Shown here piece after piece: positions 1-48,809 of a DNA stretch of 64,000 bases (within the stretch, counting starts at the first letter, position 1; the number at the start of each line of letters is the position of its first letter). Where the stretch lies: NCBI GenBank assembly GCA_035574275.1, contig DATLYY010000064.1, positions 6,516 through 70,515 of the forward strand, written 5' to 3'. Under the pieces are notes generated by a model that saw only the letters and a list, made by a program, of their open reading frames with translations, searched no databases and was not told the DNA's origin. Made by a program: the position numbers and the translations under genes. This stretch comes from Verrucomicrobiia bacterium. Lineage in GTDB: Bacteria > Zixibacteria > MSB-5A5 > DSPP01.

Positions 1-297
1 GACCGTGGAGCGGGGGTTTTTGGCCGAGCTTCGCTGCTCAATCGAGATGGCCGGGGAGAGGCCGTCGATTAAATCGACATCCGGCTTTTCCATCAGCCCC
101 AAGAACTGGCGGGCGTAGGCGGAGAGGGATTCCACATAGCGGCGCTGGCCTTCGGCGTAGATGGTGTCGAACGCCAAGCTGGACTTGCCCGACCCGGATA
201 ACCCCGTGAACACTACCAGCTTATCGCGAGGGATTTCCAGCGAAATGTTCTTTAAGTTATGCTCTCTGGCGCCCTGAATTCGGATGGTCTCTATCAC
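1..297 (-). CDS. uvrA: UvrA (excinuclease ABC subunit A), N-terminal fragment; the gene runs off the window at position 1
   Basis: Hand translation of the minus strand from GTG 297-295 gives [99 protein letters not shown]. This is the canonical UvrA N-terminus, including the Walker [10 protein letters not shown]. An in-frame stop lies upstream at 321-319, and GGGGAG sits about 9 nt upstream of the GTG. The ORF is absent from the track because it is open at the window edge. Confidence 0.9.
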
Positions 298-312
298 CGG
301 TATGTGCTCCCC

Positions 313-328
313 GACCCGTTAACGGGTC
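313..328. promoter_or_regulatory. Perfect 16-bp palindrome GACCCGTTAACGGGTC just upstream of the uvrA start (operator or 5'-UTR hairpin)
   Basis: Read directly from the sequence. The 3' arm abuts the SD-like GGGGAG of uvrA. Function is unknown. Confidence 0.25.
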
Positions 329-471
329 TTTAAGGCAAGCCCGTAAAATACCAAAAAGTTGAGGCGGGGGCAATGGGTAATTGGTGGGACGTGGTGGGTA
401 TGAAAGCTTGACTTCCAGAGCATCTTCCGCTACCTTTTACCCGAAAGGGCACGGAAAAGAACATCCCGATT

Positions 472-1047
472 ATGAAAGTTTACAGCGAAAGGGTTGCAGC
501 TGTTTGGGAGGTTACTCCAGCGACTGAAATCTTATTTTACCACGATTTCTACAAGGGTAAAGTATGGGCAAATATTAGAAAATTCTCGAAAAGCGATAGG
601 TATACGGGCCCCACAAGAGCTGGCATAAAGTTTCCTCCAGAATTTCTTCCGAAGATTATTGAATCCTTAGAGAAAGCAGAAAAGAGAAAAGACTCTCTTG
701 GTGATGAAGAGCTTCTCAGGTTAACTAAAAACAATTTTTCAGATTTAGTCATACAGGCTTCAATTTATAAAGGAACTTTTGGGATTGATATCAGAGAATG
801 GCAAAAAAGTAAGCAGTACACAGGATGGACTAAGAAAGGGATTCGTCTTCCCATAGAGTACACGGCTAAATTTTTGGATTGCCTGAAAAAAATGATCAGA
901 GCGTCAGAAGGGTTATCGGAAACCAGTTTCTCGGATAGCGCTGAACAGGCGGCAAAGGATGTAAACATTTCCGACACTACCGGCATTCCGAAAAAATTTG
1001 AAGGTCTATTTGCAACGGAGGAGCAGGATGAAAACGAGACTAATTGA
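472..1047 (+). CDS. Tandem PC4/Sub1/YdbC-like ssDNA-binding protein (two repeats in one chain) with an acidic C-terminal tail
   Basis: 191-aa ORF with two internal repeats: FYKGKVWANIRKFSKSDRYTGPTRAGIKFPPEFLPKIIESLEKA and IYKGTFGIDIREWQKSKQYTGWTKKGIRLPIEYTAKFLDCLKKM. Both fit the PC4 core pattern (FKGK..IDIREY...KKGIsL..eqw..L). The tail is EEQDENETN. Composition is AT-rich relative to the flanks. Confidence 0.7.
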   Translation: MKVYSERVAAVWEVTPATEILFYHDFYKGKVWANIRKFSKSDRYTGPTRAGIKFPPEFLPKIIESLEKAEKRKDSLGDEELLRLTKNNFSDLVIQASIYKGTFGIDIREWQKSKQYTGWTKKGIRLPIEYTAKFLDCLKKMIRASEGLSETSFSDSAEQAAKDVNISDTTGIPKKFEGLFATEEQDENETN

Positions 1048-2518
1048 TATCACGCCCGACAAAAGTCTTTTACCAAAGATGGGGTTTGCTGGGTACTCCA
1101 TTCCACAAGCCATAGCCGAATTAGTTGATAATTCAATTGACGCAATGCTCGAAGGGCAAAAATTGAAAATCGCTATACATATTGAAAAAGATTCAATAAT
1201 CATAGCCGATAACGCATCTGGAATGGACGAAAAACATATTACAAAAGCTTTAGTTCTTGCACACTCCGAAAAGAAGGGAAAACTCGGTGAGTTTGGACTT
1301 GGGATGAAAGTTGCATGTCTGAACCTTGGCGATCAATTTTCGGTTACCACAAAGCCTTTTAACGAGGAGCGAGAATTTACGATCGATTATGATTCAACAG
1401 ATTGGGCTAACAATCCAAAAGATTGGGAAATTCCTCTTAAGGAAACAGAAACAGGGAACGGCGATCATTATACAGTGGTTAAAATTTCAAAATTAAGAAA
1501 GTTTCATCCTAACCTTGCAAATTATATCAGATCTGACCTTCAGAGAAGGTTTGCGCCATATATCAATAATCACGATGTGGAGATAATTGTTAACAAGAAA
1601 AAGTGCATTCCAGAGAAGGTTGAATTAATTGATGACCAGAAAACTAATTTTGAAATTGAGTTAAAATCCGGGAATATCGTTAGAGGATGGTATGGCCTTT
1701 TAAAGCAAGGGTCACAAAAAGGTTGGTACGGGTTTAGTACCTTTCGTCGAGGCAGGATGATAACCGCTTTTGATAAGATTGGTATTGGAGAACATCCCAC
1801 AATTGCAAGGATAGTAGGTGAAATACATATGGACCACGTTCCTGTTACAACAACAAAGAGAGAGTTTGAAAAAGAATCCCCAGAATACCGTGAGGTAGAG
1901 GAAGCTTTAAAGAAAGAATTTAGGGAGATTGTTAAGTTAGCTCGACAAAAAGCTGGAGAAGAGAAAGTTACGAAGGATATCATAGAAGAAATTAATATAT
2001 GGAAGGAAAATATATCTGAAGCGGTGAATTCCAAGGAATTCCACACTTACACTTCCAAGTTTGAGGGATTAAAAATTCGCCGTGATGAAAAATCTCAAGA
2101 CATTGAGCAGATTGATGTCGAGCAGCGTAATGAAAAAGAAGACACGTCAACAACGCCAGAGGAAAAACCAAAATCTGAGAAAGACAGAACTCCGACCGAG
2201 ACTCACAAAAAGAAAAGGCATGTTGTTAGAATTAAAGGCAAGAACGTGGAATTTGAGCATCAGTTTGCCCATCTTGGAGAAGAGGAAAGTTGGAAAAAAT
2301 GGAAGTATGATCCCGGTAAAGTAATTGAAATTTTCACTAATACAGATTTTCCAGCTTTTCACGCTACTAAGGATAGGGTATTCTATGCTGTTATCCATAT
2401 TGCAGAGTCCATATCTGAATTGCTGGTACATCAAGCCGAAGAAGACCCATCCAATATAGATGAGATTAAAGAACTTATTTTGAGAATATCTTCAAAGATC
2501 AAATATGAATTGAACTGA
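1028..2518 (+). CDS. MORC/paraMORC-like GHKL ATPase (HATPase_c_3 type) with a Lys/Glu-rich linker and a C-terminal helical domain
   Basis: Bergerat-fold motifs are present: N-box ELVDNSIDA, G1 DNASGMD and G2 GEFGLGMK, followed by an S5-like region (RGWYGLL...FRRGRMI...IVGEIHMDHVP). ATG 1028 has GGAGG at 1017-1021. The gene overlaps the upstream stop by 20 nt. The TTG 998 start in the track is less likely. Confidence 0.8.
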   Translation: MKTRLIDITPDKSLLPKMGFAGYSIPQAIAELVDNSIDAMLEGQKLKIAIHIEKDSIIIADNASGMDEKHITKALVLAHSEKKGKLGEFGLGMKVACLNLGDQFSVTTKPFNEEREFTIDYDSTDWANNPKDWEIPLKETETGNGDHYTVVKISKLRKFHPNLANYIRSDLQRRFAPYINNHDVEIIVNKKKCIPEKVELIDDQKTNFEIELKSGNIVRGWYGLLKQGSQKGWYGFSTFRRGRMITAFDKIGIGEHPTIARIVGEIHMDHVPVTTTKREFEKESPEYREVEEALKKEFREIVKLARQKAGEEKVTKDIIEEINIWKENISEAVNSKEFHTYTSKFEGLKIRRDEKSQDIEQIDVEQRNEKEDTSTTPEEKPKSEKDRTPTETHKKKRHVVRIKGKNVEFEHQFAHLGEEESWKKWKYDPGKVIEIFTNTDFPAFHATKDRVFYAVIHIAESISELLVHQAEEDPSNIDEIKELILRISSKIKYELN

Positions 2519-2543
2519 TTTGCCTTTTAGTCACTTAGGCAAA
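2519..2543 (+). terminator. Weak hairpin after the GHKL gene (TTTGCCT-N11-AGGCAAA), with no U-tract
   Basis: A 7-bp stem read from the sequence. It lies in the 70-nt convergent gap. Confidence 0.2.
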
Positions 2544-2588
2544 CTTAGTAAGTGCCAAACTCCCCGGCCGTTCTTTGACCGGGACAGT

Positions 2589-3020
2589 TTACTTGGAAGT
2601 GTCGGCTTTGGCGGCGGGCCAGAATTCGAGTTTGCCTTCGATGCCCAAAAAGGCGAGCGCCTCGCTCATTGTGCGGAAGACGGCCACGTCCTTGGTGCTG
2701 CGGGGTTCCAGCCGCCGGTAGGCCTCGTACAGTTCCCCCAAGGCAAAGGCCAAATCCTGCGTGGCCACAATGGCAAAGCGCGTCCAGGTGGGAGGAGTAT
2801 CCATAGAAGCGGAAAGCGCGGCCAGTTCCCGCATCCTGTCGGGTGAAGGAGAAACAATCCCCTTCGTTTGGGTCATATCCACGAGTTCGTTGTAACCAAC
2901 GACATCCGAGCTTGACCAAACCTCCCGCTGGTAATCGAAGAGATCCTCGGCGGAGACCATTCCAACCCCCCGGGCGGCCACCAGCCGGAGGTGATGGAGG
3001 ATGCGATGCTCAATCGGCAT
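2589..3020 (-). CDS. Hypothetical protein (143 aa), possibly a SpoIIAA/STAS-like fold
   Basis: The ORF is GC-rich like the host and has a non-repetitive sequence (…VAVFRTMSEALAFLGIEG). It has no motif I can assign firmly, and it competes with shadow ORFs. Confidence 0.4.
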   Translation of the reverse strand: MPIEHRILHHLRLVAARGVGMVSAEDLFDYQREVWSSSDVVGYNELVDMTQTKGIVSPSPDRMRELAALSASMDTPPTWTRFAIVATQDLAFALGELYEAYRRLEPRSTKDVAVFRTMSEALAFLGIEGKLEFWPAAKADTSK

Positions 3021-3057
3021 AGAGCATTACCCAGAGATTCATTGCAAAGCGGTTCCG

Positions 3058-3918
3058 TTAGAACGCAAGCATAACACCCACTTCCGGGGCGAAGTCGGTG
3101 GCGTTGGTGGTCAGTCCCCAGCCGTTGTTCAATTTGAGATAGTAGCGGGGGTGGAAGTGCCACTGGGCTTCGGTGATGAAGGTCACCTCGTCCAACTGGT
3201 TTCCTTCAATGGCCCCGACGACCCGCCAGCCCGGCGATAAACGCCGCAAGTATTCGAGGGCGTATTCCCCGGCCTCAAATTTCCGCTCGGCGCGGTTGTA
3301 TTCCGCCGCGGCCCGGAAGGTGATTGTTCCCCAGCCAAATCCCCGGATGAACCCGGCCCCCAGCTTGAACTCCCAGTCGCTCGTGCCTATCAAGTTTCGA
3401 CTTTTCTGCAAAGGAAAAACCGTTTCGAAGTAGGTGAAAAATTCCGGGCGGCTTTCATTTTCGCGCAAGAAACGCCAGCGGATTTGCCCTTCCACGTCCC
3501 CCAGGCCGGATTCCTCCACCTCGGAGGGCATGGCGGAAGTGTCGTTGGCGGATTTGGTGAGCTGGGCGCCGATGACGGCGGCTTCCAACTCCATCACGAG
3601 GTCGGGCGTGATGCCGTAGCCGACGAAAAGAAGCCCTTCGGAGGCGCGGTAGCGTCCGCGGTAGTCGGTTCCCAGCCCGTAGCCCAATTCGCTCGGCTTG
3701 TACTCGAGGTTTTCATCGGCATAAAACTCGTAGAACGGATAGACGAGCCATTCCCCTTTTTGCAAATAGGTGCCGAACATCGAGGTGGAAACACCGGGAC
3801 CGCGGTCGCGCAGGTAGGAGGGAAGTTCCTGGGCTTTTAAATCTTGAACGATGAGGAAAAGAACGAAAGCGAGGAAAAGAGCGAAAGCGCTTGCGGTTTT
3901 TTTGCCGGTCTGAAGCAT
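3058..3918 (-). CDS. Outer-membrane beta-barrel protein (hypothetical)
   Basis: ATG 3918 is preceded by AAGGAGG 5 nt upstream. The signal peptide is MLQTGKKTASAFALFLAFVLFLIV. The sequence shows an alternating beta-strand pattern with aromatic girdle residues and a C-terminal ...VMLAF. Confidence 0.65.
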   Translation of the reverse strand: MLQTGKKTASAFALFLAFVLFLIVQDLKAQELPSYLRDRGPGVSTSMFGTYLQKGEWLVYPFYEFYADENLEYKPSELGYGLGTDYRGRYRASEGLLFVGYGITPDLVMELEAAVIGAQLTKSANDTSAMPSEVEESGLGDVEGQIRWRFLRENESRPEFFTYFETVFPLQKSRNLIGTSDWEFKLGAGFIRGFGWGTITFRAAAEYNRAERKFEAGEYALEYLRRLSPGWRVVGAIEGNQLDEVTFITEAQWHFHPRYYLKLNNGWGLTTNATDFAPEVGVMLAF

Positions 3919-4008
3919 GTTAACCTCCTTCTGCACGGTTTATCGTGCGTTTTGGAAAGCTGCTTAAATTCGTTAACTATGCCTTCAGATACTCCTTTCG
4001 CTTTTGTT

Positions 4009-4036
4009 AAAATAACACCCCTTCAAGGCGAGTCAA
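4009..4036 (-). promoter_or_regulatory. Sigma70-like promoter for the OMP gene (TTGACT-16-TATTTT)
   Basis: The -35 is at 4036-4031 and the -10 at 4014-4009 on the minus strand. Confidence 0.3.
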
Positions 4037-4050
4037 GAATTTTTAATGCT

Positions 4051-4800
4051 TTAACCCAGGGCCAAGCTTGCCGGCAGTTGTTTCCAGACCCCCTGCACCA
4101 AGAGGAAATCCTTCAAGAACTCGGACAGCTCTTTGACCAGTTTGGGGGGGACTTCGAGTTGAGAAGATTTTTCGAAGTCGGAATGGGCAAGCGTTTGGGC
4201 TAAAATCTTCAGTTCAGCGGAGAGTTTTAAATAGCGTTCGCTTTCGCGGGCGTCTTCGGCGCAGACCAGGCCCCCTTTTTCGGGATGGAAGAGATAGGAC
4301 TTCCTGTTCTCTTTCTTCCCACAACGGAAGCAGGCCTCCAGATTGGGGCGGAAACCGAGGATGGAAGCGCCGTAATAGACGAAAAGCCAGAATAAGAACG
4401 GCGATTGAGTTGACGTAGAAGTTTCCAAGCGGTTGAGAAAGCCGGTCAGAAGCTGAAAGTAGGCGGGGTTTTGCTCTTCGCCTTTAATCCATTCATCCGT
4501 TATTTCGCAAGCGGCGGCGGCGAAGGGGAAAATTTCGGCTTTGTCCGCCAAGCGCAGGTGGGATTTCAGGAGCGTGGCCTGGGAAAGCAGATGCAATTCG
4601 GTCGTCGTCTTGTGATAAAAGACCAGTTCGCTTTCGGAAAAAGTTTCCAAGGCGGAAAGGAATTTGCTTTTGGGGGCGAGGGCGCCTTTGGCCAGCAAAT
4701 GCACTTTGCCGAACTCGCTGGTGTAGGCGGAGATGATTTTGGAGGAGTCGCCGAAGCGGCGGCCGCCCAGAATGACGGCGTTAGTTTTGCACAGGGGCAT
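4051..4800 (-). CDS. recO: DNA repair protein RecO
   Basis: The N-terminal OB region is [42 protein letters not shown]-terminal Zn motif is CFRCGKK...GLVCAEDA. ATG 4800 is preferred over TTG 4815. Confidence 0.8.
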   Translation of the reverse strand: MPLCKTNAVILGGRRFGDSSKIISAYTSEFGKVHLLAKGALAPKSKFLSALETFSESELVFYHKTTTELHLLSQATLLKSHLRLADKAEIFPFAAAACEITDEWIKGEEQNPAYFQLLTGFLNRLETSTSTQSPFLFWLFVYYGASILGFRPNLEACFRCGKKENRKSYLFHPEKGGLVCAEDARESERYLKLSAELKILAQTLAHSDFEKSSQLEVPPKLVKELSEFLKDFLLVQGVWKQLPASLALG

Positions 4801-5173
4801 AAGCCCCGTCTTCAAACTTCGGGGGGGAGTCCTTGGGGGGGATTATCTTGTACAGAATCTCCCCTTTTTTGGCCAAGCCGAGCTTTTCGCGGGCCACTTT
4901 TTCCACCAGTGCCGGGTTTTTGGCGAGCTCCCGCTTGCGCCATTCCAAATCGGCCTGCACCACGGTCAGATAGCGGTTTTCGCGAATCAGATTCTCCCGT
5001 TTTTCGTAGAGGGAGAGAATGCGCAGAAAACCGAAGTTGCCGGTGGCGAAAAGGTAAAGGAGAACAATGGAGCCGGCCATCCAGAGAAATAAGCGGAAGG
5101 ATTTTCTGGAACCCAAGGCGCGGTCGCGAATCCGGCTGACAAAGGAACTTTCCTTTTCGCGCGGCTTATACAT
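4781..5173 (-). CDS. ftsB: Septum formation initiator (FtsB/DivIC family)
   Basis: A single TM ([17 protein letters not shown]) is followed by a coiled coil and ...[16 protein letters not shown]. The conserved eno-ftsB order is present, and the gene overlaps the eno stop by 8 nt. Confidence 0.65.
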
Positions 5174-6518
5174 TTTTGCTCCGGTAGTTTTCCAGAATCT
5201 TGGGCCCGGCCCAGCGGGCTTGTCCTCTCAATTCGTCCTCGATGGCCAAAAGGCGGTTGTACTTCGATACCCGCTCGCCACGGCAGGGGGCGCCGGTTTT
5301 GATTTGTCCGGTCTGCCAGGCGACGGCCAAATCGGCGATATAGTTATCGGCCGTTTCGCCGGAGCGGTGGGAAATCACGGAGGCGTAGCCGGCGTCCCGC
5401 GCGGCCTGCACGCATTGAAAGGTCTCCGAAAGCGTGCCAATCTGGTTCGGTTTGATTAAAACGGCGTTGGCGACTTTGCGTTGAATTCCCAGTGACAATC
5501 GCTTGGGGTTGGTGACGAACAAATCGTCGCCGACGAGCTGCACTTTTTTCCCCAGCCGCTCGGTCAACAAATTCCAGCCGTCCCAGTCATCTTCCGCCAT
5601 GCCGTCCTCAATGGAGTAAATGGGATAGCTTTTGCACAGGTCCACATAATACGCCACCATCTCCTCCGGGGAAAGCTCTTTTTTCTCCCCTTTCAAAACG
5701 TAGCGATTTTTGCCGGCGTCGAAAAACTCGCTGGCGGCGGGGTCCAGAGCGAATAAAACGTCTTCGCCCAGATTGTAACCCGCTTTTTTGACCGCCCCGG
5801 AAATCAAGTCCAGTGCCTCGCGGTTGGAGCGCAAATTGGGGGCAAAGCCCCCTTCATCACCCACACCGGTGGAAAGGTTTTTTTCCTTCAGCACGGCCTT
5901 CAAGGCCCACAAAATTTCCGAACCCATTCGCAAGGCCTCGCGGAAATTCGGCGTTCCGACGGGGGCGACCATAAACTCCTGCAAGTCGACATTCGAATCG
6001 GCGTGGCGGCCGCCGTTCAAAATGTTCATCATCGGCACGGGGAGCAACGAGGCGTAAACGCCGCCCAGATACTGGTAGAGGGGCTGCATCAAACTGCGGG
6101 CGGCGAGGCGGGCGCAGGCGATGGAGACGCCCAGAATGGCGTTGGCCCCTAACTTGCCCTTGTTTTCGGTGCCGTCCAGCTCGCAAAGAAAGCCGTCGAC
6201 GCTCCCCTGATTGAAAATGTCCGGCTGGCTTTTCAGAAAGGCGGGGGCAATCTGACGTTCCACGTTTTCGATGGCTTTTTTGACACCCATGCCGCGGAAG
6301 CGTTTGGGATCCTTGTCGCGAAGTTCCAATGCTTCGTGGGTGCCGGTTGAGGCTCCCGAAGGGACGGAGGCGGAGGAGATGACGCCATCAGCGGTGCCGG
6401 CAAGAACTTCCAAGGTCGGATTGCCGCGGGAGTCCAGAATTTCCCGCCCCTTCAAAAATGCCAGCTCCACGGGCGCAAAAGTATGCGAAAAAAATTTTTG
6501 GGCAAGGGGTTTTTGCAT
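5166..6518 (-). CDS. eno: Enolase (phosphopyruvate hydratase)
   Basis: [14 protein letters not shown] lies near the N-terminus, with SHRSGETAD and [19 protein letters not shown] motifs further on. I chose ATG 6518. An internal GTG (VELAFLKG) is an alternative start. The 534-aa track ORF is over-extended. Confidence 0.9.
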
Positions 6519-46590: not shown

Positions 46591-46779
46591 TTATAGTCCA
46601 GCCAGCCCCTTGATTGCCAAATAGGGAAGAATGATGTAAAGAATGGAGTCGCGCACGGCGTAGAAGGCGATAATCACCACCAGCCAGCGCCAGCCCTTTT
46701 TCTTGAAATGGGCGATTGTTTCTTTGCGCCCAAGCTTTCCTTCCGGCAACAGCCCCCAGCGAACCAGAAATCTCTTCAA
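46591..46779 (-). CDS. Small membrane protein (hypothetical, 62 aa)
   Basis: It has one clear TM (WLVVIIAFYAV...ILYIILPYLAI). Its start abuts the ABM gene stop. Confidence 0.4.
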   Translation of the reverse strand: MKRFLVRWGLLPEGKLGRKETIAHFKKKGWRWLVVIIAFYAVRDSILYIILPYLAIKGLAGL

Positions 46780-47078
46780 GTCGCCAGAACCTCGAAAATT
46801 TCCACTTTGGAGGTCAGAATCGATTTCCCGTTTTCCGTAAACTCCTTGACCCGCTGGTGGCCCTCCCGGTATTCGGAACTCCCGACCCAGGCCTCAAAAT
46901 CCTCTTTTTTTTCCCAGTGGGTCATCACCAAATAGGCATCCCCTTCCAGCGGTTTCAAAATTTCGGCCTTGATAAAGCCCGGTCGGCGGTCCACCGCTTT
47001 TTTGCGGGTTTTGAAAACCTCCTCAAAGCGTCCCCGCCATTTTTCGGGAACGGTCATTCGGTTTATCATTACAAACAT
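46776..47078 (-). CDS. ABM-domain monooxygenase (IsdG/HmoA-like candidate)
   Basis: ATG 47078 follows GGGGAGG. MFVMINRMTVPEKWRGRFEEVF...AYLVMTHWEKKEDFEAWVGSSEY is an ABM ferredoxin-like pattern. Confidence 0.65.
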   Translation of the reverse strand: MFVMINRMTVPEKWRGRFEEVFKTRKKAVDRRPGFIKAEILKPLEGDAYLVMTHWEKKEDFEAWVGSSEYREGHQRVKEFTENGKSILTSKVEIFEVLAT

Positions 47079-47151
47079 TTCTTTATCTACCTCCCCTGCT
47101 GTATTGTTATTTGTTTCACAAGAAACAAGCCCAAGTCGCATACGGGTGGGA

Positions 47152-47180
47152 AATAAAGGATAAGCAAAATTCCTTGTCAA
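47152..47180 (-). promoter_or_regulatory. Sigma70-like promoter for the ABM-porin-feo gene string (TTGACA-17-TTTATT)
   Basis: The -35 is at 47180-47175 and the -10 at 47157-47152 on the minus strand. The leader contains the hairpin TTGTTTC-ttgt-GAAACAA. Confidence 0.35.
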
Positions 47181-47252
47181 GATAAATGTTAAATTGCAAG
47201 CCATTGTTATTCAGTGGCTTACATTGATTATGACAAATAGCATATTATTTGG

Positions 47253-47307
47253 CGACTGAATTAGTCGGTAATTTAATAATGACTACGACTATTTTAGTCG
47301 GTATTTT
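47253..47307. promoter_or_regulatory. Two copies of the inverted repeat CGACT-N5-AGTCG followed by GTA, spaced 33 bp apart (candidate operator pair)
   Basis: The copies are CGACTGAATTAGTCGGTA (47253-47270) and CGACTATTTTAGTCGGTA (47286-47303). They lie in the AT-rich region upstream of the iron-uptake locus. Confidence 0.4.
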
Positions 47308-47327
47308 TGGTATCGATTTTTCTGATC

Positions 47328-47921
47328 TTAACGAATCTTAATCAAGTTTTGGTACTTTTTCCAAATCGGCAACCAATCCTCCTTGAAAACTGCAATCAGG
47401 ATTTCATCGTGATATTTTCCGTTGCGGAAAATCTGTTTTTTGCGGACGCCCTCGACTTTGTAGCCGCATTTCAGGTTGTATTGCAAACTACGTTTGTTGA
47501 AAGCGTACACGGACGAATTAATTTTCCGGAGGTTCAAGGTGTTAAAGGCGTAGTTCAACAAGGTCATTTTGGCGTCCGTGCCGTACCCTTTTCCCCAGTA
47601 TTTCTTTTCTCCAATCAAAGCGCCGGTCGAAGCCGTCCGGTCTTTGGCATTGATGTGAACGAGCGCCATATTGCCAATCAGCTTTCCGTCCAGGGTTTCT
47701 ATCCCCAGAATGATTTCGTTTGGATTGTTGGCCATCCGGTCAAACCATTCCTCCTCCTTTTTTTCAGTAACGGGAAAATAAACGAGCAGATACTGGTTCA
47801 CCTCCGGGTCGTTTATCCAGCGCAGGCAAAGTTCGAAATCGGTTGCCTTCCGCAAGGGGCGGAGGATGGTCTTTTTCCCCTTCAAGAACACAAGTTTTGG
47901 TCTGTTGGTGGTTTTCCGCAT
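47328..47921 (-). CDS. GNAT family N-acetyltransferase (RimJ/RimL-like)
   Basis: Contains LRPLRKATDFELCLRWINDPEV...IGNMALVHI...GALIGEKKYWGKGYGTDA...N.RSL. I chose ATG 47921. The upstream 212 codons of the track ORF are antisense to mlaE. Confidence 0.75.
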   Translation of the reverse strand: MRKTTNRPKLVFLKGKKTILRPLRKATDFELCLRWINDPEVNQYLLVYFPVTEKKEEEWFDRMANNPNEIILGIETLDGKLIGNMALVHINAKDRTASTGALIGEKKYWGKGYGTDAKMTLLNYAFNTLNLRKINSSVYAFNKRSLQYNLKCGYKVEGVRKKQIFRNGKYHDEILIAVFKEDWLPIWKKYQNLIKIR

Positions 47922-48023
47922 TTGATTTCCAATTAGAGCCAAAGCATAAAAAGAAGCAAGAGGTCCGATTTCCCCTCTTTTCTTATTGCCAGCCAGAGTT
48001 GAAGCCGTTAATTTGACCGTTCG

Positions 48024-48809
48024 ATGCCTTCCTTTGCCGTGGCCGCCAACGAGCGGCTGAAAAAGATGGTTTTTGAGGCGCAGGGGATAACCGCCTTCGC
48101 CGGAAAGGTTCTTTCCAAGCTGTTTACGCCCCCTTTTTACTGGCGGGATTTGTACGAACAGATTCATTTTCTGGGGATCGGGTCGGTCTATCTTTGCATT
48201 TTCACCGGTGTTTTTGCCGGGCAGGCAATGGCTCTGCAATTTTCCAAGGAGATGGCGGAATTCGGGGCCAAGGATTACATGGGACGGATCGTCACTTTGG
48301 CCAACGTGCGGGCCTTGGGGCCGGTTTTGACCGGGCTGATGGTGGCGGCAAGGGTTTCCTCCGGCATCGCCGCCGAAATCGGTGCGATGAAGGCCTCCAA
48401 CCAGCTGGATGCTTTGGTCTCCTTCGGCACCGATCCCGTCAAGAAGCTGGCCGTGCCGCGGCTTTGGGCCCTTTTTTTGATGATGCCGATTCTGACTATT
48501 CTTACCGACACCATCGCCATAATCGGCGGCTGGATTGTTTCCCATTTCATCGTGCATGTTTCCGATGCTTTGTACTGGACGAACGTGAAGCAGAAGCTGA
48601 CCTACGGCAATCTATTGGTGGGAATGACCAAGCCGTTCGTTTTCGGCATCATCATCGCCATCGTCGGCTGCTATAAAGGTTTTTCGTCCGAAGGGGGAAC
48701 GCGGGGGGTCGGGCAGGCCACGCGCGAGGCCGTAGTGATTTCCTCGATTACGATTCTGGTGGCGGAGTTTATGATGACCAAAGGGCTTTTCGCCATTTTG
48801 GGTTGGTGA
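48024..48809 (+). CDS. mlaE: MlaE-type ABC transporter permease
   Basis: Contains GPVLTGLMVAARVSSGIAAEIGAMKASNQLDAL. Confidence 0.8.
   Translation: MPSFAVAANERLKKMVFEAQGITAFAGKVLSKLFTPPFYWRDLYEQIHFLGIGSVYLCIFTGVFAGQAMALQFSKEMAEFGAKDYMGRIVTLANVRALGPVLTGLMVAARVSSGIAAEIGAMKASNQLDALVSFGTDPVKKLAVPRLWALFLMMPILTILTDTIAIIGGWIVSHFIVHVSDALYWTNVKQKLTYGNLLVGMTKPFVFGIIIAIVGCYKGFSSEGGTRGVGQATREAVVISSITILVAEFMMTKGLFAILGW

Follow-up and report, generated by a model that had tools for sequence, protein, structure and literature searches.

Near the left end of a 64,000-nucleotide stretch of contig DATLYY010000064.1 (assembly GCA_035574275.1; the window, hereafter, is that whole stretch) lies an AT-rich block with two genes on the forward strand, the first encoding two PC4-type domains in one chain and the second a MORC-type ATPase, which together form the cassette considered here. 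The block is bordered on the left by uvrA, the N-terminus of which is translated from the reverse strand of positions 1-297 with a GTG start codon at 297, and on the right by a convergent open reading frame (ORF) of 143 amino acids (aa) with its stop codon at 2589; both borders are where an earlier reading of the sequence alone (the original prediction) had placed them. That reading also took the composition of the block to be foreign, and the sliding-window statistics reveal a strong break. In 300-nt windows the GC content is 0.35-0.42 from approximately 450 to approximately 2550, against 0.55-0.61 in both flanks, and when 2-kb windows are taken over the full 64 kb (mean 0.554, standard deviation (sd) 0.032) the minimum is the one starting at 501, at 0.3845 or approximately 5 sd below the mean. 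The same is seen in the GC content of third codon positions (GC3), which is 0.39 in gene 1 and 0.34 in gene 2, as against 0.68-0.78 in five neighbours (uvrA, the 143-aa ORF, a 292-aa ORF, recO and the enolase gene).

In agreement with the original prediction, no tRNA is found within the 64-kb window, no integrase-sized ORF within positions 1-6000 and no convincing direct or inverted repeat at the edges of the block; nor was a transposase, an integrase or an element border found around the cassette. Exact-match look-ups with the flanking 143-aa protein, made in search of an empty site, returned only its own contig. Scanning the forward strand for promoters and terminators gave nothing exceeding shuffled expectation, with no sigma-70-like site matching the consensus in the 5' intergenic region and no terminator-like site in the 3' one. 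The two genes themselves are arranged exactly as first described, with frames that overlap by 20 nt, gene 1 containing the ribosome-binding site from which gene 2 is translated (Table 1), and the start codon assigned to gene 2 matches the starts of its homologues.

That gene 1 would encode two PC4-type repeats, with a match to PF02229 to be expected, was proposed from the letters, and profile searches, structure prediction and structural comparison agree on it. The Pfam PC4 model matches two stretches of the protein (E = 8e-11; 41.7 bits, cut-off 25), and a family profile searched against the PDB recovers BPSL1147, the Burkholderia PC4 homologue, as well as human PC4, fungal Sub1 and the PC4-like protein of phage T5. 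The AlphaFold2 (AF2) model, which has a predicted local distance difference test score (pLDDT) of 88.6, contains two beta4-alpha units at pLDDT 93-98, and Foldseek places a single repeat of this predicted structure on BPSL1147 with a TM score of 0.85 and a deviation of 1.7 Å. When the whole chain is used, the best Foldseek matches are repeats I-II of Pur-alpha (E from 4e-6 to 1e-4; TM 0.63-0.70, normalised to the target). The PurA family is absent from the Pfam matches of gene 1 at E up to 1, and identity to PURA is only 8-14%. Judged from the model, gene 1 is PUR-like in architecture but not a member of the PUR family, and is best described as a single-chain pseudo-dimer of two PC4 domains, in the manner of Pur-alpha.

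The invariant residues of repeat 1 are R36, Y44, G46, P47, T48 and G51, and those of repeat 2 are D106, R108, G118 and G123. The residues through which PC4 contacts DNA are known from its structure with single-stranded DNA (ssDNA); the human motif IDIREY...KPGRKGISL aligns with GIDIREW...YTGWTKKGIRL in repeat 2, and its counterpart in repeat 1 is ANIRKF...PTRAGIKF. From this alignment gene 1 keeps the ssDNA-contact residues of PC4, and ssDNA binding itself is predicted.

Gene 2 had been assigned to the MORC branch of the GHKL ATPases, with PF13589 and an S5-like domain as the expected matches, and Pfam, PDB profile and Foldseek searches likewise concur. HATPase_c_3 is matched with an E value of 1.8e-18 and Morc6_S5 with one of 1.4e-6 (28.8 bits, cut-off 26.2). 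A profile search of the PDB is led by MORC3 (4.7e-21), MORC4 (1.7e-17) and MORC2 (1.8e-10), with the best topoisomerase or MutL match, at approximately 1e-4, behind all MORCs, and the Foldseek matches of the AF2 model (pLDDT 86.5) are also headed by MORC3, MORC4 and MORC2. Across 117 homologues the GHKL residues E31, D34, N35 and D38 (motif I), D61, G65 and M66 (motif II) and G87, G90 and G92 (motif III) are invariant, while T149 of motif IV is at least 90% conserved. The S5 region aligns with MORC3 residues 309-389, including YGIMMYHRNRLI and THNKQDF, and its lysine K277, again invariant in the 117 homologues, lies opposite the lysine of the MORC3 THNK motif. The S5 motif GhXhhpXXRhl is reported to tell MORCs from paraMORCs (PMC2292703); the corresponding segment of gene 2, GFSTFRRGRMI (aa 235-245, opposite GIMMYHRNRLI of MORC3), fits it at 10 of 11 positions, the exception being T238 at a hydrophobic position, and gene 2 can therefore be regarded as a prokaryotic MORC proper. 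As far as its conserved motifs tell, it is a catalytically intact MORC of the GHKL plus S5 type.

Downstream of these domains, the charged linker is approximately 48 aa long by both model and sequence, rather than the approximately 60 aa first estimated; 52% of it is K, R, E or D, and both its sequence and its length differ among homologues. The region that follows was originally described as a helical domain. Helices are indeed present, but in the AF2 model two long ones are preceded by five or six strands, so that the domain is not purely helical. No Pfam match exists for the C-terminal 113 or 214 residues of gene 2 and no PDB sequence match for the domain, and a search of 1.84 billion representative sequences returned only 54 matches, almost all of them C-termini of approximately 500-aa MORCs of the same family, or fragments. 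One candidate function was tried and rejected: in close homologues, an HIAExxxE helix motif together with conserved H411, N438 and D440 suggested a metal site and a resemblance to the MutL endonuclease motif, but across the wider family that keeps the domain these candidate polar residues are not conserved, H411 giving way to K/D/Y, D440 to A/S and H457 to N/S. The domain is read as probably serving dimerisation or partner binding. Pfam scans also found no recognisable effector domain in gene 2, as had been anticipated.

Table 1. Features of the AT-rich block and its edges, in window coordinates
Feature	Position	Strand	Evidence or remark
5' intergenic region, presumed promoter region of the cassette	298..471	+	GC drops from 0.58 to 0.46
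Gene 1, single-chain tandem PC4 (PC4x2) protein, putative ssDNA-binding adaptor, 191 aa	472..1047	+	Pfam, PDB profile, AF2, Foldseek
PC4 repeat 1, aa ~6-71	487..684	+	Strands 6-15, 18-27, 30-40, 45-54; helix 56-71
PC4 repeat 2, aa ~79-145	706..906	+	Strands 79-87, 90-99, 102-112, 117-127; helix 128-145
Tail of gene 1, acidic and of low confidence, aa 146-191	907..1044	+	pLDDT 58-78; 12 D/E, 3 K/R
GIPKKFEGLF, aa 171-180 of gene 1, proposed MORC-docking motif	982..1011	+	Conserved peptide
GGAGG ribosome-binding site of gene 2, within gene 1	1017..1021	+	6 nt before ATG at 1028
Gene 2, prokaryotic MORC ATPase, 496 aa	1028..2518	+	Pfam, PDB profile, AF2, Foldseek
GHKL ATP-binding domain, aa ~1-182	1028..1573	+	Family-invariant motifs
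S5-fold transducer, aa ~183-283, with MORC signature and K277	1574..1876	+	Morc6_S5 at residues 187-297
Helical region, aa ~284-343	1877..2056	+	Helices 285-297, 299-313, 316-333, 336-342 (model)
Disordered charged linker, aa ~344-391	2057..2200	+	pLDDT <50 over 351-393
Family-specific C-terminal alpha/beta domain, aa ~392-496	2201..2515	+	pLDDT 86-96 (AF2)
3' intergenic region, right edge of the AT-rich block	2519..2588	.	GC climbs from 0.35 to 0.61

If the two genes form a unit, their homologues should also be neighbours elsewhere, and this is what is observed. After deduplication there are 16 independent pairs in several phyla, with identical gene order and strand throughout, and in every case the genes either overlap by 17-44 nt or are separated by 10-13 nt. 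Carriers identified by name include members of the Acidobacteriota, Actinomycetes, Gaiellales, Coriobacteriia, Saccharibacteria and Lentisphaerae; one, Anaerosoma tenue (L181), is a cultured isolate, and further pairs lie on metagenome contigs. For gene 1, no more than five relatives came out of a word-index search, and the two closest (P0122 and P0123) share short contigs with the two closest relatives of gene 2 (P0002 and P0003). A hidden Markov model of gene 1 was run against one genome per GTDB species, and at the five closest loci (L001-L004 and L011) its match is the ORF immediately 5' of the MORC gene; a metagenome scan seeded by the PC4x2 alignment added five more pairs (L081, L092, L096, L104 and L133). 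Conversely, for MORC homologues of 50-62% identity on long contigs (P0009, P0017, P0023, P0030, P0039, P0041 and P0046), a PC4x2 gene lies directly upstream in seven of seven, one of these genes having been overlooked by the original gene caller. In a neighbour-joining distance tree the PC4-linked MORCs cluster, and a group with a helix-turn-helix (HTH) partner, described below, is nested among them. Translation of the two genes is coupled, and in phyla far apart they are inherited together as one unit. Of 14 non-redundant pairs, 7 have a lower GC content than the DNA around them.

One metagenome-assembled genome, GCA_040961635.1, carries two diverged PC4x2-MORC cassettes on separate contigs (L167 and L170). 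Their MORCs are 62% and 53% identical, respectively, to that of the window, and both cassettes are far below their flanks in GC content.

A short C-terminal peptide distinguishes the PC4x2 proteins that accompany MORCs. All of them end in [GS][VI]Pxx[FYL]xx[FYL][FY]; a database scan with the pattern [GSA][VIL]Pxx[FYLW]xx[FYLW][FYLW] finds it at the end of all 20 MORC-type PC4x2 proteins among the matches, at chain lengths of 169-231 aa, and it is present in 25 of 25 pairs (14 non-redundant). The sister MORCs of L006, L007, L008 and L068 have upstream of them a gene for a protein of approximately 490 aa that is not PC4 but contains DnaA_C and sigma70_r4 HTH domains, and is non-homologous to PC4x2. 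These partners nevertheless end in the same way, in GVPNEYEIFFK, GVPSEYKVFFN, GVPNEYNVFFE and GIPNEYKIFFQ respectively. Among 819 called genes from 75 genome loci the motif stands at the C-terminus of seven, all seven directly upstream of a MORC gene, and of none of the remaining 812. Nor does any tail-less PC4 protein, tandem or single, adjoin a MORC gene among the loci examined; the tail-less types are a 152-aa protein of Elusimicrobiota, an approximately 315-aa type ending in GLPWL and an approximately 100-aa single-domain type ending in PDY. Because unrelated DNA-binding proteins share both the peptide and the position beside the same ATPase, the simplest reading is that an interchangeable adaptor holds on to MORC through this peptide, and judging from sequence that of gene 1 probably docks onto its MORC.

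Further variation was seen in what accompanies MORC genes and in PC4 proteins that do not. A protein of approximately 80 aa without a Pfam match (cluster c13) is encoded 5' of the HTH adaptor in L006-L008 and directly 5' of MORC in L010 and L012; in L010 a gene for an N6/N4 DNA methylase comes before it. Its role could be that of a third component or of a different kind of adaptor. The tail-less 152-aa PC4x2 protein is widespread in Elusimicrobiota (L076-L080 and L082-L103), in a conserved, housekeeping-like order of AsmA/YhdP, PC4x2, a Ser/Thr kinase of approximately 790-830 aa, a PP2C phosphatase and GroES/GroEL, which suggests a separate, phosphorylation-linked role. [quoted passage not shown]

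The neighbourhoods of the pair, the inspection of which was proposed with the original prediction, are rich in known defence genes. Restriction-modification (R-M), abortive infection (Abi) or toxin-antitoxin (TA) type genes are adjacent or within approximately 5 kb in 10 of the 13 contexts with readable flanks, counting type I, type IIG and type ISP-like R-M, GmrSD, AIPR, AbiE, MazE-PIN and Fic. A Snf2/DrmD-like helicase with a type IIG/ISP-like restriction-methylase is found in L002, L003 and L011, the second of which also has GmrSD and a PD-(D/E)xK protein, and a full type I HsdMSR system with a PDC-S06 ATPase in L172. L178 contains HsdR, YgjP, PDC-M30A and a further GHKL protein, L174 contains AIPR, and L169 and L170 contain MazE-PIN, accompanied in L170 by Fic. 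A. tenue has a dense island with Abi_C, UvrD, a type IIG R-M enzyme, a PDC-M26A-like protein, DUF2357/PDDEXK_7 and AbiEi/AbiEii. PC4-less relatives of gene 2 with the same C-terminal domain adjoin a Shedu SduA_C nuclease with a methylase, or else a trypsin-like protease, metallo-beta-lactamase, nucleotidyltransferase or ParE-like genes. By guilt by association, such surroundings point to a mobile conflict module.

A different arrangement is seen in the branch of actinobacterial and Coriobacteriia members, where the MORC gene overlaps the gene next downstream of it (L181:11148-15672 and L002:7515-8036). In Anaerosoma this downstream gene encodes a 978-aa PDC-M26A-like protein and is itself followed by DUF2357 plus PDDEXK_7; in L002 it encodes a 173-aa protein. 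Some versions of the system may thus have extra, possibly effector, subunits that are absent from the window.

Other MORC operons were met in the course of the analysis. A four-gene operon occurs in 29 genomes of Clostridia, Saccharibacteria, other Patescibacteria and some Proteobacteria (L036 and L039-L070, e.g. L043:6001-9928); its MORC, of approximately 420 aa, has GHKL and Morc6_S5 fused to a PEP-utilizers mobile domain, and the remaining genes encode proteins of approximately 377 and 271 aa without Pfam matches and an approximately 250-aa PPDK_N (ATP-grasp) protein, an organisation that resembles a MORC wired to a split relay of the phosphoenolpyruvate (PEP) synthase/phosphotransferase type. 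Thaumarchaeal MORCs of approximately 620-655 aa with a C-terminal DUF6577 (L037, L038, L063, L065 and L071-L073, e.g. L037:6001-9060) always have an AbiEii-like nucleotidyltransferase gene directly 3' of them, and a Nanoarchaeia genome contains tandem MORC paralogues with an 8-nt overlap (L013:5986-9055).

Within the window itself, the genes to the right of the cassette (2589-3936) encode the 143-aa protein and a 292-aa protein, neither with a Pfam match, the latter having a signal-peptide-like N-terminus and a beta-rich sequence like that of an outer-membrane protein; recO, a DivIC-like gene and the enolase gene follow. A second, weaker dip in GC content (0.427 against approximately 0.55) lies at 47000-48000 and holds the C-terminal half of a reverse-strand ORF (47328-48557) that by eye is similar to GNAT-type acetyltransferases, with a 142-aa ORF beside it on the same strand (46776-47204).

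Taken together, these observations are consistent with a horizontally acquired cassette whose two products, an adaptor that binds DNA and an ATPase of the MORC type, would make up a two-subunit machine directed against invading DNA, a reading that we consider to have somewhat better than an even chance of being right. In such a machine the terminal peptide of the adaptor would dock on the MORC dimer, much as the C-terminal tip of SSB recruits its partners, and the adaptor would sense single-stranded or unwound DNA, candidate targets being intermediates of phage replication or recombination, incoming conjugative or transforming ssDNA, and R-loops. Binding by the adaptor would load or activate MORC, which on binding ATP would close and clamp or compact the bound DNA, as do eukaryotic MORC-1 and MORC2, for which ATP-dependent clamping and compaction have been described (PMC12216690, PMC8277788). 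The clamp could then stop replication or expression of the invader, or hold it for neighbouring restriction enzymes. As the cassette is without a nuclease, the output would be silencing, entrapment or co-operation and not cleavage by the pair. Everything past the coupling of adaptor and ATPase is speculative in this scheme. Recurring in distant phyla, usually beside R-M, Abi or TA genes, the pair makes a good candidate for a module against invaders that has not been described before, and a defence function is probable.

Several points weigh against a defence cassette of this kind. Three of the 13 contexts (the window, L167 and L176) are without a defence neighbour, and the apparent enrichment is a count over those 13 contexts without a matched background control. 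Searches for carriage on plasmids or phages gave little: when 72,556 plasmids were searched by tblastn with both proteins, and 50,697 phages with MORC, there was no match apart from two distant MORC-like plasmid genes, a scan of IMG/VR with the MORC profile gave none, and all that the PC4 profile picked up there were phage PC4 genes that are short, have a single domain and lack a MORC. The tree in which the PC4-linked MORCs cluster is a quick one without support values. Finally, with no effector domain in either gene, protection by a clamp alone is speculative.

A more specific version of the same idea, which we consider less likely than not, is that of an adaptor-guided MORC, in which interchangeable adaptors share the docking peptide and the clamp silences or immobilises invading DNA without cutting it. 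The assignment of PC4x2 to ssDNA and of the HTH protein to duplex DNA belongs to this version and is similarly tentative. Were it true, it would amount to a nuclease-free immunity by compaction and a prokaryotic forerunner of the adaptor-guided silencing of transposons by eukaryotic MORCs.

The nearest rival, itself unlikely in our estimation, is that the pair is not autonomous but an accessory of R-M systems, assisting translocating type I, ISP and IIG enzymes by handling DNA superstructure or the ssDNA arising from translocation, as Iyer et al. proposed for MORCs. The pair is indeed found on the same strand directly 3' of the helicase and type IIG/ISP-like enzyme in L002, L003, L011 and L181, and after HsdR in L172 and L178, and an operon logic of this kind has been published for MORCs (PMC2292703). 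However, the type of R-M partner varies by locus, and in the window, L167, L169, L170, L174 and L176 there are only TA or Abi genes or no defence neighbour; the copy in the window would then have to be an orphan, either working with an unlinked R-M system or idle. The cassette moreover travels as a two-gene unit with its own composition, and what the sister MORCs swap is the adaptor gene, the R-M gene not being conserved.

It is rather improbable that the pair instead belongs to a mobile element and serves it as a selfish or regulatory module, whether a MORC toxin restrained by its adaptor or a xenogeneic silencer of AT-rich DNA that keeps the surrounding island quiet. The tightly coupled layout with the small gene first is TA-like, MazE-PIN, Fic, ParE-like and AbiE genes are adjacent in some loci, the DNA is AT-rich and foreign, and eukaryotic MORCs are silencers; but the cassette is not surrounded by the integrase, transposase or borders of an element, neither protein resembles known toxin or antitoxin families, and the pair is absent from the plasmid and phage collections. 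The remaining alternative, that an ssDNA binder and a MutL-like ATPase act as an accessory of host DNA repair or replication, can draw on uvrA and recO flanking the cassette, on recJ and a UvrD/PD-(D/E)xK helicase near the pair in L169 and polA near that in L167, and on the relationship of MORCs to MutL, but it is very unlikely because the flanking repair genes differ from locus to locus and are housekeeping genes of host composition, whereas the cassette is compositionally foreign (GC3 of 0.34-0.39 against 0.68-0.78) and patchily spread over Acidobacteriota, Actinomycetes, Saccharibacteria and Lentisphaerae, most contexts being R-M, TA or Abi, and a repair gene in 3 of 13 contexts is, by our estimate, about what chance would give at approximately 10 genes per context.

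In eukaryotes, MORCs play a central part in the silencing of transposons, and the genes for them are disease genes. To our knowledge, no bacterial MORC has been studied experimentally, and in 2021 the biochemistry of these proteins was still called 'poorly understood' (PMC8011034). The cassette offers a minimal, two-protein MORC system, with an ssDNA binder as its predicted input module and a testable interface of ten residues in its tail. Since sister systems pair a different adaptor with the same tail, a natural control is available, and with A. tenue there is a cultured carrier. If the pair proves protective, clamping and compaction would be added to a field of defence in which nucleases, NADases and membrane effectors dominate, and the origin of MORC-based genome defence would become directly testable.

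No named system accounts for the pair, in line with the original prediction: PADLOC v2 names none, and PADLOC v2, NCBIfam and PHROGs together return only weak matches to the N-terminal GHKL region (MzaB) and PHROGs of unknown function. The literature on MORC, GHKL and HATPase_c_3 in connection with PC4 and defence, searched with most subscription journals outside its scope, describes neither a PC4-MORC pairing nor the tail, and as far as can be told both are previously undescribed. Each gene does, however, resemble known proteins in part.

Compared with PC4, Sub1 and YdbC (human PC4, BPSL1147 and the phage T5 protein), each repeat of gene 1 has the same beta4-alpha unit and the IDIRE[YW]...[KR]KGI motif, but classical PC4 and YdbC are one-domain homodimers, while gene 1 has two fused domains and an acidic tail with a hydrophobic tip. 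The intramolecular dimer of Pur-alpha repeats I-II is what the whole chain resembles, on the predicted model. In bacterial SSB, an acidic tail ending in ...DDDIPF recruits partner enzymes through its C-terminal tip. By analogy, gene 1 would share with SSB the plan of an ssDNA-binding core, a disordered acidic tail and an end peptide of proline plus aromatic residues, but its fold is PC4 and not OB, its peptide is another one, and its presumed client is a single, dedicated ATPase encoded beside it, in place of an array of repair enzymes. AcrIIA22 (PMC8545432), a PC4-like protein that nicks supercoiled plasmids, is a precedent for this fold in conflicts between phage and host; it differs in being a phage or plasmid anti-defence factor and a single small protein without an ATPase partner, and nothing suggests nickase activity in gene 1.

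For gene 2, the anti-phage systems GHKL-Shedu (paraMORC3, VcSduA; PMC12137116) and MZA (MzaB) also contain a GHKL ATPase, but both identities are ruled out by their defining features. No DUF4263/SduA_C nuclease was found in gene 2, including its C-terminal 113 and 214 residues, although a separate SduA_C gene lies just downstream of its relative in L005. MzaB is the sole named PADLOC match to gene 2, at 23.4 bits, and the NCBIfam MzaB model covers residues 22-123 alone, scoring 34.6 bits where its equivalog cut-off is 850; none of MzaA, MzaC, MzaD and MzaE is encoded in the island, which holds two genes only. Eukaryotic MORC2, MORC3, MORC4 and Caenorhabditis elegans MORC-1 are the top profile or structural matches over GHKL and S5, and are clamps or compactors brought to their targets by adaptors (PMC12216690, PMC8277788). 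Gene 2 differs from them in lacking the CW zinc finger, the coiled-coil insertion and chromatin-reader domains, in its C-terminal domain and in an identity of only approximately 15-19%; its putative recruiter, the product of the adjacent gene, is of a nucleic-acid-binding type and not a chromatin factor.

The closest precedent is provided by the prokaryotic MORCs of R-M operons (Iyer, Abhiman and Aravind 2008, PMC2292703). These have GHKL, S5 and the MORC motif, as does gene 2, are likewise sporadic and laterally transferred, and are linked to superfamily 2 (SF2) helicases, methylases and restriction enzymes in the same way as relatives of gene 2. The association of prokaryotic MORCs with R-M systems, to which the original prediction also pointed, has thus been in print since 2008, and what is new is confined to the pairing with PC4 and the tail proposed for docking. 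The 2008 paper names no partner of the PC4 or ssDNA-binding kind (PMC2292703), whereas here there is a PC4x2 adaptor with a docking-type tail. Gene 2 in addition has a private C-terminal domain, and the cassette can stand without a helicase or nuclease: SF2 helicase, methylase and restriction nuclease are absent from the cluster in the window, and present in L002, L003, L011, L172, L178 and L181. On this comparison, the cassette would be a MORC-based conflict system with a new and defined adaptor architecture.

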